Shown piece after piece: positions 21,569-26,732 of a DNA stretch of 64,000 nt. The stretch is from assembly GCA_963977015.1 (NCBI GenBank), contig CAXBMO010000010.1:32001-96000 (forward strand), given 5' to 3'. The notes under the pieces are model-generated. The model worked only from the letters and a program-made list of their open reading frames with translations, was not told the DNA's origin and ran no database searches. Position numbers and translations under genes: made by a program. Within the stretch, counting starts at the first letter, position 1. Each line of letters opens with the position of its first letter. This DNA comes from an uncultured bacterium (GTDB lineage: Bacteria; Verrucomicrobiota; Verrucomicrobiia; Verrucomicrobiales; DEV007).

Positions 21569-23650
21569 CTATTCGAGAAACCGGAATTGGCCACTCGCCA
21601 AAAGCAGATGTATCAAGTCCGCCCACGCATCTTCTTCGTTCGTTTCCGCGCCTCGCAAATCCAAGTAAGCGGAGGCAATTTGTTTGGAGGCAGAATCGGG
21701 TTTGGCGCCCGAAGTGAGACGAAAGGCGAGCTCCAGGCGGGAGGCGGCTGGAACTGAGAGAATCCGTTGGGCGGCCGCCTTCGCCTGGGTTTCAAGAAAA
21801 GTTCCGTTCATGAGAAACAGGGATTGCGAGGGGATCGTTCGCGAATGTCGGGCGCCGATCGAGACATTGGGATCGGCGAAGTCGAACAACTGGAGAAACT
21901 CGGGCATCTCGTTGCGAACAATCGGTAAATAGATCGTGCGATGACGATCGGACGCGATTTCTTCTCGAAACTCGACCCGGTTCCCGCCATTTCCGTAATC
22001 CTTGCCGGCATATACGTGACGCATGATTGATCCGTCCGGAGGACTGAGGTCAAGTTGGCCGCTGACGGACAGCACGGCGTCTCGGAATTGCTCGATGTCG
22101 AGACGACGAAAGTTGGCCCGCCACCAAAAGCGGTTCTCGGGATCGATCTCTTGATTCTTGGCATTGGATTCGCTCGAAAGCTGCCACGTTTCAGTGAGCA
22201 CGATCCGGCGGATCAGCCGTTTGATGGACCATCCGTCCGCGATGAATCCCGCGCTGAGATGGTCGAGCAATTCGGGGTGACTAGGCTCGTCTCCCATCAC
22301 GCCAAAATTATCAACTGTTCGAACCAGGCCCTGACCAAACAGGTGATGCCAAACGCGATTCACGATCACTCGTGCGGTTAACGGATTCTCCGGAGCGGCG
22401 AGCCACTCGGCCAACTCCAGGCGACCGCTCTTTTCAATGCTGATCTCACTCCAGGTCGGCATGCCGGGAATGGAGAGGCCGCCGCGATTCACGATGGGGC
22501 CGTGGTCCTTCGGCATCCCGCCAATGCGAATCCGACAGTTCTCCGGCGGAGCACTCGCGCGCTGCATGGCCATGGTGTAGCCAGGTTGATCTGGTGGGGG
22601 ATTCTCGATCAACGCGATTCGCTCCTGATTCTTCGCCTCTGCGTCGGCATACATCTGTTCGCTCTTTTCATGAAGCGCCAGTAAGTCAGGCGCCTCTTCC
22701 GGCTTTTGGAGCCCGCGATCGCGCAGAGTGCCGGTGACCTCACGGCGGATGCGGTAAGCGGCCGATCGCGTTCCGGTAACGAACTCCGTCAGCCGGACTA
22801 CTTCCGCCCGCCACGCGGCAACCGCTGGATGGAGCTCGTTCGCCCGCGTTCCGATTGGAACCAATTTCGTGTCCTTCTCGTGCTTGTTGAGGTAAAGCGG
22901 GCCTGGTCCGTAGCGCGTTTCGCTGCTCAGGAAGATGCCGGCCAACGCATAGTAATCCGCAGTCGGGATGGGATCGAACTTGTGATCATGACAACGGGCG
23001 CACGCGATGGTCAGCCCGAGAATAGAACGCGACATCACATCGATTTGCTCATCGACAAGATCCATTTTGAATTTCTCGATGTCGGGCTCCTGAAACGCCT
23101 TCGGGCCGAGAGCGAGGAACGCCGTGGCAATTTTTTGCTCGTCGCTGGAATCCTCCAGCAGGTCTCCCGCGATCTGCTCCCTCACAAACTGATCGTAGGG
23201 CTTGTCCTGATTGAAGCTGGAGATGACATAGTCCCGGTAGCGCCAGGCATGTGGAAACACCACGTCACGATCCTTGCCGTTGGATTCCGCATAACGTGCC
23301 AAGTCAAGCCAGTGACGGCCCCATTTCTCGCCGAACCGTGGACTTGCCAACAACCGATCGACCAGTTGTTCCGTGGAAATCTGCTGCGCATCCTCAAATT
23401 CTTCAGGCGAAGGAGGTAAGCCAATCAGGTTGAAGTAGAGCCTGCGAATGAGGGTTTCAGTCTTTGCGGCGACGGCGGGTTTCAGGCCCTGTTCCGCTCT
23501 TTTGGTGGCGATGAACTGGTCGATCGCCGTTTCTTCCTCATGGCCGGTCAGACTGTGTTTCTGAATCGGTGAGAGCGACCAGAGCCCAGGTTCGCTGGCG
23601 AAAAGAATCGCCGGAAACAAAAGGGCAATGGTGGAAATGAGGCGGAACAT
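21569..23650 (-). CDS. DUF1549/DUF1553 domain protein
   Basis: GEKWGRHWLDLARYAES, DKPYDQFVREQIAGD, CARCHDHKFDPI, PSHPELLDHL. Confidence 0.93.
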   Translation of the reverse strand: MFRLISTIALLFPAILFASEPGLWSLSPIQKHSLTGHEEETAIDQFIATKRAEQGLKPAVAAKTETLIRRLYFNLIGLPPSPEEFEDAQQISTEQLVDRLLASPRFGEKWGRHWLDLARYAESNGKDRDVVFPHAWRYRDYVISSFNQDKPYDQFVREQIAGDLLEDSSDEQKIATAFLALGPKAFQEPDIEKFKMDLVDEQIDVMSRSILGLTIACARCHDHKFDPIPTADYYALAGIFLSSETRYGPGPLYLNKHEKDTKLVPIGTRANELHPAVAAWRAEVVRLTEFVTGTRSAAYRIRREVTGTLRDRGLQKPEEAPDLLALHEKSEQMYADAEAKNQERIALIENPPPDQPGYTMAMQRASAPPENCRIRIGGMPKDHGPIVNRGGLSIPGMPTWSEISIEKSGRLELAEWLAAPENPLTARVIVNRVWHHLFGQGLVRTVDNFGVMGDEPSHPELLDHLSAGFIADGWSIKRLIRRIVLTETWQLSSESNAKNQEIDPENRFWWRANFRRLDIEQFRDAVLSVSGQLDLSPPDGSIMRHVYAGKDYGNGGNRVEFREEIASDRHRTIYLPIVRNEMPEFLQLFDFADPNVSIGARHSRTIPSQSLFLMNGTFLETQAKAAAQRILSVPAASRLELAFRLTSGAKPDSASKQIASAYLDLRGAETNEEDAWADLIHLLLASGQFRFLE

Positions 23651-23743
23651 GATCGAAGCCTTTGGAATAACACGCCTGAAACAACGTCCTTGTTTCAAGG
23701 CGCATCCTAACATGATCACTATTGTCTTCCAGATTATTTTGCG

Positions 23744-24991
23744 ATGACGCGCTATCTCCGCGAACGAACCTTGTTTGGACCGTTGCTTGAGGAGCCTCCC
23801 TCAAATCGATTGGGAATGGTGGTGGTCATTCCGGCGAAAGATGAACCCAATCTGCTTCGGTCGCTCGAAAGCCTGGCTGATTGTGAGGTTCCAACTTCGG
23901 ATGGGGAAGTGATTGTAGTGATCAACTCCGGGGAAAACGATGCGGCTGAAGTCGTTGAGAGGAATGCCCGTTTGGAGACGGAGGCGCGGGAATGGGCGAA
24001 GTCCAATTCACGGGCGAAATTGAAGTTTGAGGTGTTGAATTTTCCCAACCTTCCGCACAAGCATGCCGGAGTTGGCCTGGCACGAAAGATCGGGATGGAT
24101 GAGGGGTGCCGCCGCCTCGAAGCGGTGGGCAATCCGACCGGAGCGCTTCTCTGCTTTGATGCGGATAGTCGCTGTGATCCCAACTATCTTCGCGAGGTGG
24201 AAGCTCTCTTCCGGCGGGATGAGTCTTGCCAGGCTTGCTCCATCTACTTTGAGCATCCGATGGAGGGACGCGAGTTTGTTCCGGAGATCTACGATGCAAT
24301 CATCGACTACGAACTTCATCTCCGCTACTTCGTGCGAGCGCAACGCCATGCCGGTTTGCCGCATGCTTTTCAAACGATTGGTTCGTCAATGGCAGTTCGG
24401 TGCGACGCGTATCAGGCCCAGAACGGAATGAATCGGCGCAAAGCTGGTGAGGACTTCTACTTCCTCCACAAGTTCACGCCGTTGGGAACGTTGGTTGATC
24501 TGAACAGCACCCGGGTAATTCCATCTCCCCGCCCGTCAGATCGCGTTCCTTTTGGGACCGGGAAAGCGGTTGGCGAATTGATCGAGACGGATGCGAAGTG
24601 CCTGACCTATCATCCGTCGAGCTTTCAGGATCTACGCAGTTTCGTCGGGACGGTGGATTCGTTGTTTGAGCTTGCTGAGGGGAAAGAGGAGGCGTTTGTC
24701 AAAAATCAGCCGGAGAGTGTCCGCGCCTTTCTCGAAACGCAGCCGTTCTGGGAGCGCGTTGCTGAAATCCGTTCCAACGTCACCACCCGTGACGCCTTTC
24801 GCAGCCGGTTCTTTCGCTGGTTCAGCGCCTTTCTCGTCATGAAGTTTGTCCATCACGCTCGCGACCACTTTTACCCGGATTGCGAAGTCGGAGAAGCGGC
24901 CAAATGGCTGCTGGAAGCGACCTGTCCGGCAAAAAACGCGGAGACGAATGCCGAACTGTTGAAAATCTATCGGGAACTGGACCGCGCCTAG
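23744..24991 (+). CDS. Glycosyltransferase family 2 protein
   Basis: VVVIPAKDE, GVGLARKIGMD, DAD (DxD), GEDFYF. Confidence 0.85.
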   Translation: MTRYLRERTLFGPLLEEPPSNRLGMVVVIPAKDEPNLLRSLESLADCEVPTSDGEVIVVINSGENDAAEVVERNARLETEAREWAKSNSRAKLKFEVLNFPNLPHKHAGVGLARKIGMDEGCRRLEAVGNPTGALLCFDADSRCDPNYLREVEALFRRDESCQACSIYFEHPMEGREFVPEIYDAIIDYELHLRYFVRAQRHAGLPHAFQTIGSSMAVRCDAYQAQNGMNRRKAGEDFYFLHKFTPLGTLVDLNSTRVIPSPRPSDRVPFGTGKAVGELIETDAKCLTYHPSSFQDLRSFVGTVDSLFELAEGKEEAFVKNQPESVRAFLETQPFWERVAEIRSNVTTRDAFRSRFFRWFSAFLVMKFVHHARDHFYPDCEVGEAAKWLLEATCPAKNAETNAELLKIYRELDRA

Positions 24992-26136
24992 TTCGAGCGC
25001 GTTTCCATCACGACTTTTTCAATGCGCTCAAGCGCAGAATCGATCTCGGCCTTGGTCGTGAAAATGGAGAGCGAAAGCCGCAAACTGCTGAACGCGCGTT
25101 CGTCGCTGAAACCCATCGCCTTTTGCACGTGACTGGGTTGGGCCTTGCCCGTCATGCAGGCGCTTCCCGCAGAGCATTGGACGCCGGCCTGATCCAGCTT
25201 GGGGAGCAGCTCGGATGCGGTGCAGCCATCGAAGGAAACATGAGCGACATTGCCGGTCCGGTGCTCACGCGATCCATTGAGGTGAACGCCATCCAGCCGC
25301 TTCACCAATTCGTTTTCCAGGAAATCGCGAAGTTCAGTCATTTCGGCATGGCCATCTTCATCAATCCGCAGCCTCATGATTTCAGCGGCTTTTCCCAATC
25401 CGACGATAAAAGGCACATTCTCGGTTCCACTGCGCATTCCCGATTCCTGGCCACCACCCCGGATCATCGGCTCAAAGTTTGCGTTTTCCCGGATGAACAA
25501 AGCTCCCACGCCCTTCGGCGCATGAAATTTGTGGCCGCTGATCGAAAGGAAATCGACCGGGACGTCCGCAACGTTGATCGGCACCTTTCCAACCGCCTGA
25601 ATCGCGTCGGTATGGAAGCTCCACTTGGCCGCTGAAGCGATCTCGCAAGCTTCGGCAATCGGCTGGACTACGCCGGATTCATTGTTGGCCCACATGATTG
25701 AGCAGAAGCCCGGTTTGGTGGAATCAACGACGGTTTCGAGGTCCGGAATCCGGAGTCTGCCATCCTCATTGACCCCAACGCGTTCAACGTCGAACCCGAC
25801 CGCCTGCATCGCTTCGAGAGGTCGGAGAACCGCGCTGTGTTCGATTTCGCTCGTGACAACTTTGGAGTTTTTTCGACCGATCAGTCGCGCGAGGGATTTG
25901 ATCGCCATGTTGTTCGACTCTGTGCCGCACCCCGTGAAGACGATCTCCGTCGGCCTTGCCCCAATCAACGCGGCCACTTGCTCTCGAGCGTTCTGAATTG
26001 CGGCTTTCACTTCCTTGCCGGCGGCATAGCCACTGGACGGATTGTACCAGGTTTCCGTCAGAAATGGCATCATTGCTTCTACCACCTCGGGATGAACCTG
26101 AGTGGTTGCGTTGGAGTCCAGGTAGATGGCAGCCAT
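24988..26136 (-). CDS. Cysteine desulfurase (NifS/IscS group I)
   Basis: IYLDSNATT, NPSS, FTGCGTESNN, EHSAV, HTDAIQA.GK, SGHKF (PLP Lys), SAGSAC (catalytic Cys). Confidence 0.95.
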   Translation of the reverse strand: MAAIYLDSNATTQVHPEVVEAMMPFLTETWYNPSSGYAAGKEVKAAIQNAREQVAALIGARPTEIVFTGCGTESNNMAIKSLARLIGRKNSKVVTSEIEHSAVLRPLEAMQAVGFDVERVGVNEDGRLRIPDLETVVDSTKPGFCSIMWANNESGVVQPIAEACEIASAAKWSFHTDAIQAVGKVPINVADVPVDFLSISGHKFHAPKGVGALFIRENANFEPMIRGGGQESGMRSGTENVPFIVGLGKAAEIMRLRIDEDGHAEMTELRDFLENELVKRLDGVHLNGSREHRTGNVAHVSFDGCTASELLPKLDQAGVQCSAGSACMTGKAQPSHVQKAMGFSDERAFSSLRLSLSIFTTKAEIDSALERIEKVVMETRSN

Positions 26137-26172
26137 AAGATCAAGAAGCGGCAATTCGAAGTGTCGGACAAC

Positions 26173-26204
26173 AAAAAAGCCCCGCTGCCGAAGCAACGGA
26201 GCTT
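26173..26204 (-). terminator. Rho-independent terminator after the HMA gene
   Basis: Minus strand AAGCTCCGTTGC-TTCG-GCAGCGGGGCTT followed by a U tract. Confidence 0.8.
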
Positions 26205-26227
26205 AACAAAAGTATCAATTAAGAAAC

Positions 26228-26548
26228 TTAACTGTCTGCGTCTGCTTTTGCCCATGTACGGACAACATAGCGAGATGCCTTTGGTCCCAGGCTTTCAACA
26301 GCTTGTTCCTTGGTGAGTTCTTTGGAACCATCGGTGACAACGGTCACTTTCTGGGTTCCTGCCTCTTCACCTTTTTCAATGAGGACTGATTTTACGCCTG
26401 CTAGAGATGTGAACGCCGAACTGACGTCCTTTTTACAGCCTGCTCAAGTTACGCCGGTCATACCGGCCGTGTAGGTTGCTTCACCTGCCAAAGCCGAACC
26501 GGCGAAGGCAAATGCGAGCAATCCGAGGGTTGCCATTAGTTTTTTCAT
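26228..26548 (-). CDS. Exported heavy-metal-associated (HMA/MerP-like) protein with UxxC motif; probable selenoprotein (in-frame TGA at codon 35)
   Basis: Manual translation: MKKLMATLGLLAFAFAGSALA-GEATYTAGMTGVT(TGA)AGCKKDVSSAFTSLAGVKSVLIEKGEEAGTQKVTVVTDGSKELTKEQAVESLGPKASRYVVRTWAKADADS*. TGA is at 26446-26444; 106 aa with readthrough. Confidence 0.8.
26408..26437 (-). promoter_or_regulatory. Candidate bacterial SECIS element
   Basis: Downstream of the UGA: stem GGACGUC/GGCGUUC (7 bp), loop AGUUC starting 21 nt after UGA with G at loop position 2 followed by U, and lower UGU/ACA pairing. Confidence 0.65.
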
Positions 26549-26732
26549 CGATGGTATTTTAACTTTACGATTTGTTTGCCGTCAACTGATGATGACAGCG
26601 CAAGTCTAGACGTCCACCTCACGGATCTATTACAAGAAAGTTCACACTTTGATCGATTTTTGGAGGTTGGATCGAAAATTCAACCCATTTCGCGATTGCG
26701 ACCGCCGCAGATTCGCGAATGATCCCCTCGAA

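Follow-up and report, generated by a model that had tools for sequence, protein, structure and literature searches.

A probable selenocysteine codon in the CxxC loop of a small, predicted exported HMA-domain protein of an uncultured Verrucomicrobiales bacterium

The locus and the coding sequence

The DNA analyzed here, referred to as the window, is a stretch of 64,000 nucleotides of contig CAXBMO010000010.1 (positions 32,001 to 96,000, forward strand) of GenBank assembly GCA_963977015.1, which represents an uncultured bacterium of the order Verrucomicrobiales (assembly completeness 95%). On the minus strand of the window, between a divergently oriented gene encoding RapA (upstream) and a gene encoding a NifS/IscS-type cysteine desulfurase (downstream), a short gene was distinguished, whose predicted product consists of a signal peptide and a heavy-metal-associated (HMA) domain, and whose frame contains a TGA that is very probably a selenocysteine (Sec, U) codon. 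The synteny with the desulfurase and RapA genes is kept in the same genus only (genomes G001 and G002).

The frame begins with ATG at 26548-26546 and comprises 106 sense codons up to the stop codon TAA at 26230-26228. Its sole in-frame TGA is codon 35 (26446-26444), which is followed by 71 sense codons, and the read-through product is MKKLMATLGLLAFAFAGSALA followed by GEATYTAGMTGVT-U-AGCKK... Under translation table 11 no open reading frame (ORF) of at least 50 amino acids is listed in this frame. An earlier note on this DNA had described a gene missing from the ORF track, with a TGA at codon 35, and both are present in the sequence as it said; its expectation that standard pipelines would miss the gene is borne out by the public protein sets, which hold fragments or a reading of the TGA as Trp (W). 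The features of the locus are listed in Table 1.

Table 1. Features distinguished at the locus of the HMA-domain gene (window coordinates)
Feature	Position	Strand	Description and basis
Predicted exported HMA-domain selenoprotein, coding sequence	26228..26548	-	106 codons plus TAA, probable Sec at codon 35; translation, Pfam HMA, orthologues with the same architecture
UGA codon 35, very probably read as Sec	26444..26446	-	Replaces the first Cys of the HMA CxxC loop; column comparison, unchanged in runs X1, X6, X7 and X8
Cys38 codon	26435..26437	-	Second putative ligand of U-x-x-C; column invariant in the 25-sequence alignment
Predicted Sec-type (secretory) signal peptide, codons 1-21	26486..26548	-	MKK, hydrophobic core, A-L-A followed by G; read from the sequence, model confidence (pLDDT) low over residues 1-20
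SECIS-type hairpin	26411..26429	-	7 bp here; conserved 5-bp core 26427-26423 with 26417-26413; loop AGUUC 26422-26418
Sigma-70-like promoter match	26556..26585	-	TTGACG-18 nt-TAAAAT; TAAAAT (26561-26556) ends 7 nt before the ATG; 10/12 consensus match
Intrinsic-terminator-like hairpin and T-run	26177..26204	-	24 nt past the stop codon; 12 pairs, 7 of them G-C; tail TTTTTGTTGTC

Domain, fold and predicted export of the product

The read-through protein matches the Pfam HMA model (PF00403) with 27.2 bits, just above the gathering score of 24.8, in agreement with the HMA-like domain proposed earlier, and the TGA stands in for the Cys that opens the CxxC motif of HMA domains (G-V-T-U-A-G-C-K). At the N-terminus, MKKLMATLGLLAFAFAGSALA followed by GE resembles, as judged from the sequence by eye, a Sec-type (secretory) signal peptide. 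This predicted element, which the earlier note had given as MKKL...SALA, has a comparable counterpart in all 25 aligned homologues, one of which (G009) carries a possible lipobox, and the protein is probably exported.

A structure model built on the 25-sequence alignment (predicted local distance difference test, pLDDT, 84.7) displays the beta-alpha-beta-beta-alpha-beta topology of HMA domains, with strands at residues 24-31, 52-59, 65-72 and 95-101 and helices at residues 36-47 and 80-92. U35 is placed at the start of helix 1, in the loop between strand 1 and this helix. The best-matching solved folds include HMA7, Atx1, MerP, ATP7B and plant HMA domains, with TM-scores of 0.6-0.75 (normalized to target length); a circularly permuted ribosomal protein S6 ranks level with the HMA structures in the same fold search. 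None of the NCBIfam models reached its cut-off with the read-through protein, the best match being MerP TIGR02052 (28 bits vs. a cut-off of 92.55), ahead of the CopZ/Atx1 models NF033795 and NF047957 (21 bits vs. cut-offs of 85-91) and NF041115 (18.8 bits vs. 95). After cleavage of the signal peptide the mature product would fold as a beta-alpha-beta-beta-alpha-beta HMA domain, whose loop between strand 1 and helix 1 would bear a selenolate-thiolate pair, U35-x-x-C38, in place of the Cys-x-x-Cys of MerP, CopZ and Atx1.

Conservation of the TGA codon and distribution of the family

Among 41 related genomes, 21 contained a match to the protein, and the 27 matches comprised 14 with exactly one TGA and 13 without. 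In all 14 TGA-bearing orthologues the TGA falls at one column, the one corresponding to codon 35, within G-V-T-U-x-G-C-K (G-I-V-U-G-G-C-Q in one copy), at identities as low as 32%, and the protein is conserved past the TGA as well. Cys stands at this column in the matches that lack TGA (12 of 13 examined). The thirteenth, L040 (E = 8.8e-4), was dropped, as the loop pattern is absent from it. In the 25-sequence alignment the residue-35 column is composed of 14 U and 11 C, and the second ligand Cys is found in all 25 sequences.

In the whole bacterial family, one of the Verrucomicrobiales, a match was detected in 103 of 134 genomes, and the TGA form in at least 79 of them. Among the 150 matches listed (22 more are unlisted), 90 carry a single TGA and 58 lack it; of the remaining two, one carries a TAA and the other a TAG. 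The position of the TGA in the column was examined only for the 14 orthologues and the 79 motif hits described below. A DNA motif scan was run on one genome per species (185,579 species), with TGA, TGC or TGT permitted at the Sec position. It yielded 73 stretches with 79 motif copies, and TGA was the codon in 79/79. The titles of 70 of the 73 records name Verrucomicrobia, Verrucomicrobiales, Akkermansiaceae or Akkermansia; the remaining ones are two 'bacterium' bins and one 3.2-kb contig in a 'Polyangiales' bin. In a sample of the phylum, matches were found in 5 of 401 genomes (12 candidates per genome scored). Many of the genomes with the TGA form are marine or freshwater metagenome-assembled genomes, and annotation splits or drops the members of the protein family.

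In a phylogenetic tree the Sec-only clade was weakly supported (69/87). The genome of the window also encodes a Cys paralogue (G000:C1:526612-526914, L042) with the loop G-V-E-C-T-G-C-K and a Pfam HMA score of 27.9 bits, which lacks the hairpin described below. At five motif loci tandem forms were observed, in which two or three HMA units share one frame and one signal peptide, each unit having its own U and hairpin (three units in L105; two in L097, L133, L148 and L149). These tandem two- and three-Sec forms, together with the single-domain ones, would extend the replacement of Cys by Sec to a free exported HMA domain. A further tandem form is located at G487:C17:34569-35420.

Contigs covering the gene were obtained from a marine DNA run (X1) and three seawater RNA libraries (X6-X8), the latter from three studies. 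They differ from the window at two positions, 26462 (synonymous, Gly29) and 26323 (Lys76Glu), and at none of the TGA positions, where the earlier note had considered that reads might show TGT or TGC. Since the independent DNA and RNA-library contigs keep the TGA, an assembly error at this codon is ruled out.

These data also bear on the explanation that the gene is a pseudogene, or that the TGA reflects a recent nonsense mutation or a sequencing error. The broken frame under table 11 and the omission of the gene from annotation would fit such an explanation. Against it stand the same TGA in 79/79 motif hits and in 14/14 orthologues to 32% identity, the conservation of the protein past the TGA, and the unchanged TGA in contigs of four runs from other studies. 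With the comparative sequence data in hand this explanation is already refuted, and its probability is close to nil.

A conserved SECIS-type hairpin downstream of the TGA

The segment GGACGUC-AGUUC-GGCGUUC (26429-26411) is the local minimum-energy fold downstream of the TGA. It resembles a bacterial selenocysteine insertion sequence (SECIS), its stem starting 14 nt past the UGA and its loop being separated from the UGA by 21 nt. The 7-bp hairpin of the earlier note, with its AGUUC loop 21 nt past the UGA, is present as described, but the conserved stem amounts to 5 bp: the outer pairs are not conserved, and the bases at 22 and 38 fail to pair in 8 of 14 orthologues. Folded by itself, the sequence is no more stable than expected by chance (z = -1.31 over 81 nt, with 18 of 200 shuffled versions folding equally well); the weight of the hairpin comes from comparison with relatives, not from the lone fold.

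For this comparison 82 copies were aligned (80 distinct sequences), namely that of the window, the 79 motif hits and two divergent orthologues. The motif used for selection stops at column 17 and the hairpin occupies columns 23-37, hence it lies outside the selection. Of the 400 cells that represent the five inner pairs, 397 hold paired bases, and 16 show changes on both sides of a pair. Variation occurs at pair 24-36 (C-G 66, U-A 13, U-G 1) and at pair 27-33 (C-G 77, U-A 3). Both the covariation score and the double-change count were reached by 0 of 500 shuffles, and when the partner was shifted by 1-3 columns pairing fell to 22-46%. Read from the alignment, the varying stem bases are third codon positions, with GAC/TAC to GAT/TAT (Asp/Tyr) accompanied by GCG to GCA (Ala), and GTC to GTT (Val) by TCG to TCA (Ser); judged in this way, the stem changes are compensatory synonymous changes, as expected of the conserved, covarying SECIS hairpin that had been predicted. 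The loop occurs as AGUUC, CGUGC, CGUGA or CGUGG, with an invariant G-U and G at loop position 2 in 82/82 copies. The hairpin is absent from all 12 Cys homologues, which form just one to three of the five pairs and lack the loop G-U.

The model of bacterial SECIS elements (bSECIS), as set out in the legend of Fig. 2 of a 2026 review (PMC13188914), specifies a loop of 3-9 nt, a stem of 4-16 bp, a G among the first two loop nucleotides, a distance of 16-37 nt between the UGA and the loop, and a minimum free energy (MFE) of -7.5 kcal/mol or lower. By these published criteria the copy in the window qualifies (MFE -9.5 kcal/mol for the UGA plus 42 nt), and the energy criterion is passed by 66 of the 82 copies over the same length. 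In its 5-nt loop, stem of 5-7 bp, G-U at loop positions 2-3, 21-nt spacing and MFE the hairpin is like the bSECIS consensus; unlike this consensus and the Escherichia coli fdhF element, it has no conserved bulged U or long lower stem. No Rfam family matched near any gathering score in the region 26150-26650.

We propose that the short hairpin would recruit SelB with Sec-tRNA(Sec) downstream of the UGA and that the ribosome would decode UGA-35 as selenocysteine. The element may represent a compact natural SECIS (5 bp with an N-G-U-N-N loop), for which the Sec and Cys forms of one family provide clean controls, and it could be useful for SECIS models and selenoprotein predictors.

Selenocysteine machinery and the reading of TGA

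A profile search of the genome identified, each above its curated cut-off, selA (498 bits), selB (293 bits), selD (376 bits) and a tRNA-Sec gene (61.8 bits) with anticodon UCA, so the machinery that the earlier note had proposed to look for is present in full. The selD gene (G000:C5:255715-256644) itself contains one in-frame TGA, and SelD may be a selenoprotein too. It is located outside the window, approximately 6.6 kb from the tRNA-Sec gene (G000 C5:263260-263354).

The selA gene was also found above the cut-off in 5/5 genomes carrying the TGA form (five genera) and in 0/5 Cys-only genomes (three genera, 83-99% complete), in a comparison whose groups are small, are defined by the feature itself and consist of relatives that are not independent. 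This co-occurrence is nevertheless the pattern expected of selenocysteine and not of ordinary read-through.

The latter explanation, in which an ordinary tRNA would insert Cys or Trp at the UGA and no selenocysteine would be involved, draws on one public gene call (P0002) that gives the homologous TGA as W, and on UGA-to-Trp recoding reported for some Verrucomicrobiota (PMC13462651). However, TGA is the commonest stop codon of the genome, terminating 1202 of 2747 open frames of at least 400 codons, and the orthologous genes of G002 and G017 end with TGA as a true stop, and general reassignment of TGA is excluded on these grounds. ARAGORN found no second UCA-anticodon tRNA besides tRNA-Sec in the genome. 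The hairpin with its loop G-U, specific to the TGA forms, and the distribution of selA likewise argue against ordinary read-through, which we consider very improbable.

Relation to known families and database records

Among described proteins, the periplasmic Hg(II) binder MerP (TIGR02052; PDB 1osd) likewise combines a signal peptide with one HMA domain, whose two-ligand loop lies at the start of helix 1. The protein described here differs from it in the putative Sec in place of the first Cys, in the loop G-V-T-U-x-G-C-K instead of G-M-T-C-x-x-C, and in the lack of a mer operon: the merT and merA neighbours by which a MerP would be recognized were not found. CopZ and Atx1 (PDB 1cc7) share its HMA fold, and their binding loop is placed alike; those proteins are cytoplasmic and all-Cys, whereas the protein described here carries a predicted signal peptide. 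NF041115 ('UxxU_metal_bind') is likewise small, HMA-like and a selenoprotein whose metal loop contains Sec, but belongs to a different family, with two Sec residues (U-x-x-U) instead of the one (U-x-x-C) found here. A catalogued UxxC cation ATPase selenoprotein shares metal handling and the U-x-x-C motif; it is a large membrane pump, in contrast to the free exported domain of about 85 residues predicted here.

A table of prokaryotic selenoprotein families in the 2026 review (PMC13188914) includes, in the passages retrieved by term search, NF041115 (UxxU), the cation ATPase (UxxC) and a MerT-type protein; the same kind of search found no PF00403, HMA, MerP or 'periplasmic' in it. The 'MerP' selenoprotein of the 2008 Global Ocean Sampling (GOS) catalogue (Table 2) was considered and set aside: it comprises two sequences, a 33-residue fragment, and is unlike the Verrucomicrobiales family. 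The strings GVTU, TGVTU and GIVU are absent from two 2008 GOS supplement files. Term searches in BSepDB, deep-Sep, a 2022 review, the 2021 GOS re-analysis and the preprint of Haft and Gwadz gave no match, and supplements of these sources may list the family. Full-text literature searches that paired selenoproteins or selenocysteine with heavy-metal-associated (HMA) domains or MerP returned nothing relevant.

A search of a set of 5.8 billion proteins retrieved 7 relatives at near lengths. No longer relatives were found in this set, which is weak evidence; fused Cys forms exist. The database relatives include (i) P0002, with its W for the TGA, (ii) two Cys forms, (iii) P0005, a C-terminal fragment called from an internal Met, (iv) P0006 and P0007 (NCBI and ENA calls), 74-residue pieces of tandem genes, each beginning after one Sec codon and extending to the following one, and (v) P0008, a 117-residue call that opens with the C-terminal half of the domain.

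The kind of system is already known, as regards Sec replacing Cys in CxxC motifs, HMA-type selenoproteins and bacterial SECIS elements. The Verrucomicrobiales family, its tandem multi-Sec forms and the selenium- and rhodanese-linked contexts described below appear to be new. A well-supported, widespread family would thereby be added to the selenoproteins, one that the searched catalogues do not list.

Assessment of the gene and the possible role of its product

Taking these lines of evidence together, we give a probability of roughly 0.88 to the reading that the locus holds a genuine gene, monocistronic and coding for a small exported selenoprotein, with UGA-35 encoding Sec in an HMA domain of the metal-carrier type. 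The narrower statement that this is a genuine selenoprotein gene can, short of biochemical proof, be made with still greater confidence.

Several observations weigh against this reading. With respect to the hairpin, the first 14 orthologues gave no significant covariation (the score is reached in 106 of 500 shuffles), the varying pairs in the larger alignment are two only, kinship of the sequences inflates the shuffle tests, the conserved 5-bp stem is short, and 16 of the 82 copies are weaker than -7.5 kcal/mol. With respect to the domain, the matches to HMA structures are weak, with E-values of 1e-3 to 1e-2. The metal role in particular is disfavored by Val in place of the canonical Met of G-M-T-C, by the lack of adjoining mer or cop genes here and at 13 other TGA-form loci examined, and by the absence from the genome of a MerA scoring above the cut-off. 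Four P1B ATPases and a single MerT-like match were found in this genome, all on other contigs.

Because no mer or cop context is present, a metal site is deduced from the fold and the ligand pair only. By analogy with the known HMA proteins, the U-x-x-C motif may hold a soft metal ion (Cu(I), Hg(II) or Ag(I)) through Se and S in the periplasm, to which we give about even odds. The gene contexts in relatives are no less suggestive of selenium, sulfur or thiol chemistry.

One such context involves mnmH, the gene for tRNA 2-selenouridine synthase, which lies divergently beside the TGA-form gene at 10 of 29 family loci examined, i.e., at each of the 9 loci from g2, the largest genus, and at one of three loci of genus g15 (450 bits vs. 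a cut-off of 266). It was likewise found beside the TGA form at 21 or more of the 73 motif loci (L083-L155), for which flanks of 400 nt were inspected. The mnmH-adjoining family loci are L057, L068, L069, L071-L073, L075, L077, L079 and L082, with an intergenic gap of roughly 100-200 nt.

A second context is that of the Cys forms. Relatives with Cys directly follow an exported rhodanese gene in G028, G034, G038, G402, G594, G565 and G586. In G037 (L044/L171, G037:C22:65295-65978) the two are fused into one protein with Pfam Rhodanese and HMA domains, and in five more genomes, of family f4, matches span both domains. A gene for an exported thioredoxin-like protein with WCPPC comes third in the row in G028 and is also found next to the f4 genes. 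The complete row in G028 (L048 842-2315) encodes the exported rhodanese, the HMA protein with CxxC and the thioredoxin-like WCPPC protein.

The same selenoprotein might accordingly perform another job than metal binding, the U-x-x-C pair serving as a redox selenenylsulfide or as a carrier of sulfane sulfur or selenium that works, in the periplasm, with an exported rhodanese and a thioredoxin-like protein. This would agree with the closest Cys relatives following, or being fused to, exported rhodaneses, with the exported thioredoxin-like WCPPC genes, with the divergent arrangement of the TGA-form gene and mnmH, whose product itself has a rhodanese domain, and with a NifS/IscS-type cysteine desulfurase gene as the next gene in the window. 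On the other side, the desulfurase is the sole link at the locus of the window, in a synteny limited to the genus, and the rhodanese orthologue and mnmH (G000:C11:138291-139205) of this genome are on other contigs. MnmH is cytoplasmic, and its adjacency may reflect selenium-dependent co-regulation alone. No HMA domain is known to us that serves as a redox or sulfur carrier. This role, the main alternative to a metal site, is a possibility with the odds somewhat against it.

A bolder proposal, which we regard as unlikely, is that the protein is not a metal chaperone but part of an exported module for handling selenium or other chalcogens, with one to three Sec residues behind one signal peptide, co-regulated with mnmH and derived from a periplasmic rhodanese-HMA-thioredoxin relay. 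If so, the module would act outside the cytoplasm, binding, buffering or handing on selenium or sulfane sulfur, or trapping Hg or Cu as Se adducts, and its logic would parallel, in a bacterium, that of a secreted protein with several Sec residues. Whichever role applies, the mnmH, rhodanese and thioredoxin-like links offer a testable handle on the function of the putative periplasmic Se-S site.

Two further gene neighborhoods were noted. In the genome of the window an exported single-domain rhodanese (G000 C6:218716-219108) with the active-site loop C-G-G-P-S-C, the orthologue mentioned above, is encoded directly after an exported Bcp-type peroxiredoxin, both within G000:C6:218716-219763, and no HMA gene is found there. 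In one genus (G024, L025 71-865) a 265-residue glutaredoxin-domain protein is encoded upstream of the TGA-form gene.

Promoter- and terminator-like sequences and neighboring genes

The TAAAAT box that the earlier note assigned to the gene as its own -10 element is present 7 nt before the ATG as a putative promoter element; RNA-library contigs extend past it, a weak hint against this role. The number of promoter-like sites (1 found vs. 0.7 expected from shuffles) is not clearly above chance. TTGAC recurs at a similar distance only in two same-genus orthologues. In a comparison of six orthologues the upstream regions aligned poorly, and neither the -35-like nor the -10-like box was kept outside the genus. 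The hairpin and T-run (26204-26177) named earlier as the gene's own terminator are likewise present, in a count of terminator-like sites (3 vs. 0.9 expected) that is not clearly above the shuffles.

The contigs of the RNA libraries X6-X8 are confined to 26235-26586, and those of the DNA run X1 cover the flanks. Three RNA-library contigs reach furthest upstream and end at 26581-26586, 33-38 nt before the ATG, which gives a weak hint of a transcript start there, upstream of TAAAAT; such contigs are uninformative on transcript ends or expression level, no weight attaches to the flanks and 3' side that they leave uncovered, and DNA may occur in RNA libraries.

At a distance of 2.5 kb from the HMA-domain gene, the window (21569-23719, minus strand) encodes a PSCyt2/PSD1 (DUF1549/DUF1553) protein. 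PSCyt1/PSCyt2 proteins are also encoded near the TGA-form gene in two other genera (L027 and L034); such proteins may simply be common in these genomes, and their proximity may be due to chance.

The downstream cysteine desulfurase scores below the NifS and IscS equivalog cut-offs and has a weak match to SclA (selenocysteine lyase; 84 vs. 525 bits). Its TTG-start ORF (24988-26196, minus strand) overlaps the terminator-like hairpin of the HMA-domain gene. The true start is likely to be ATG 26136, since the long ORF matches Pfam only from residue 24 onward.

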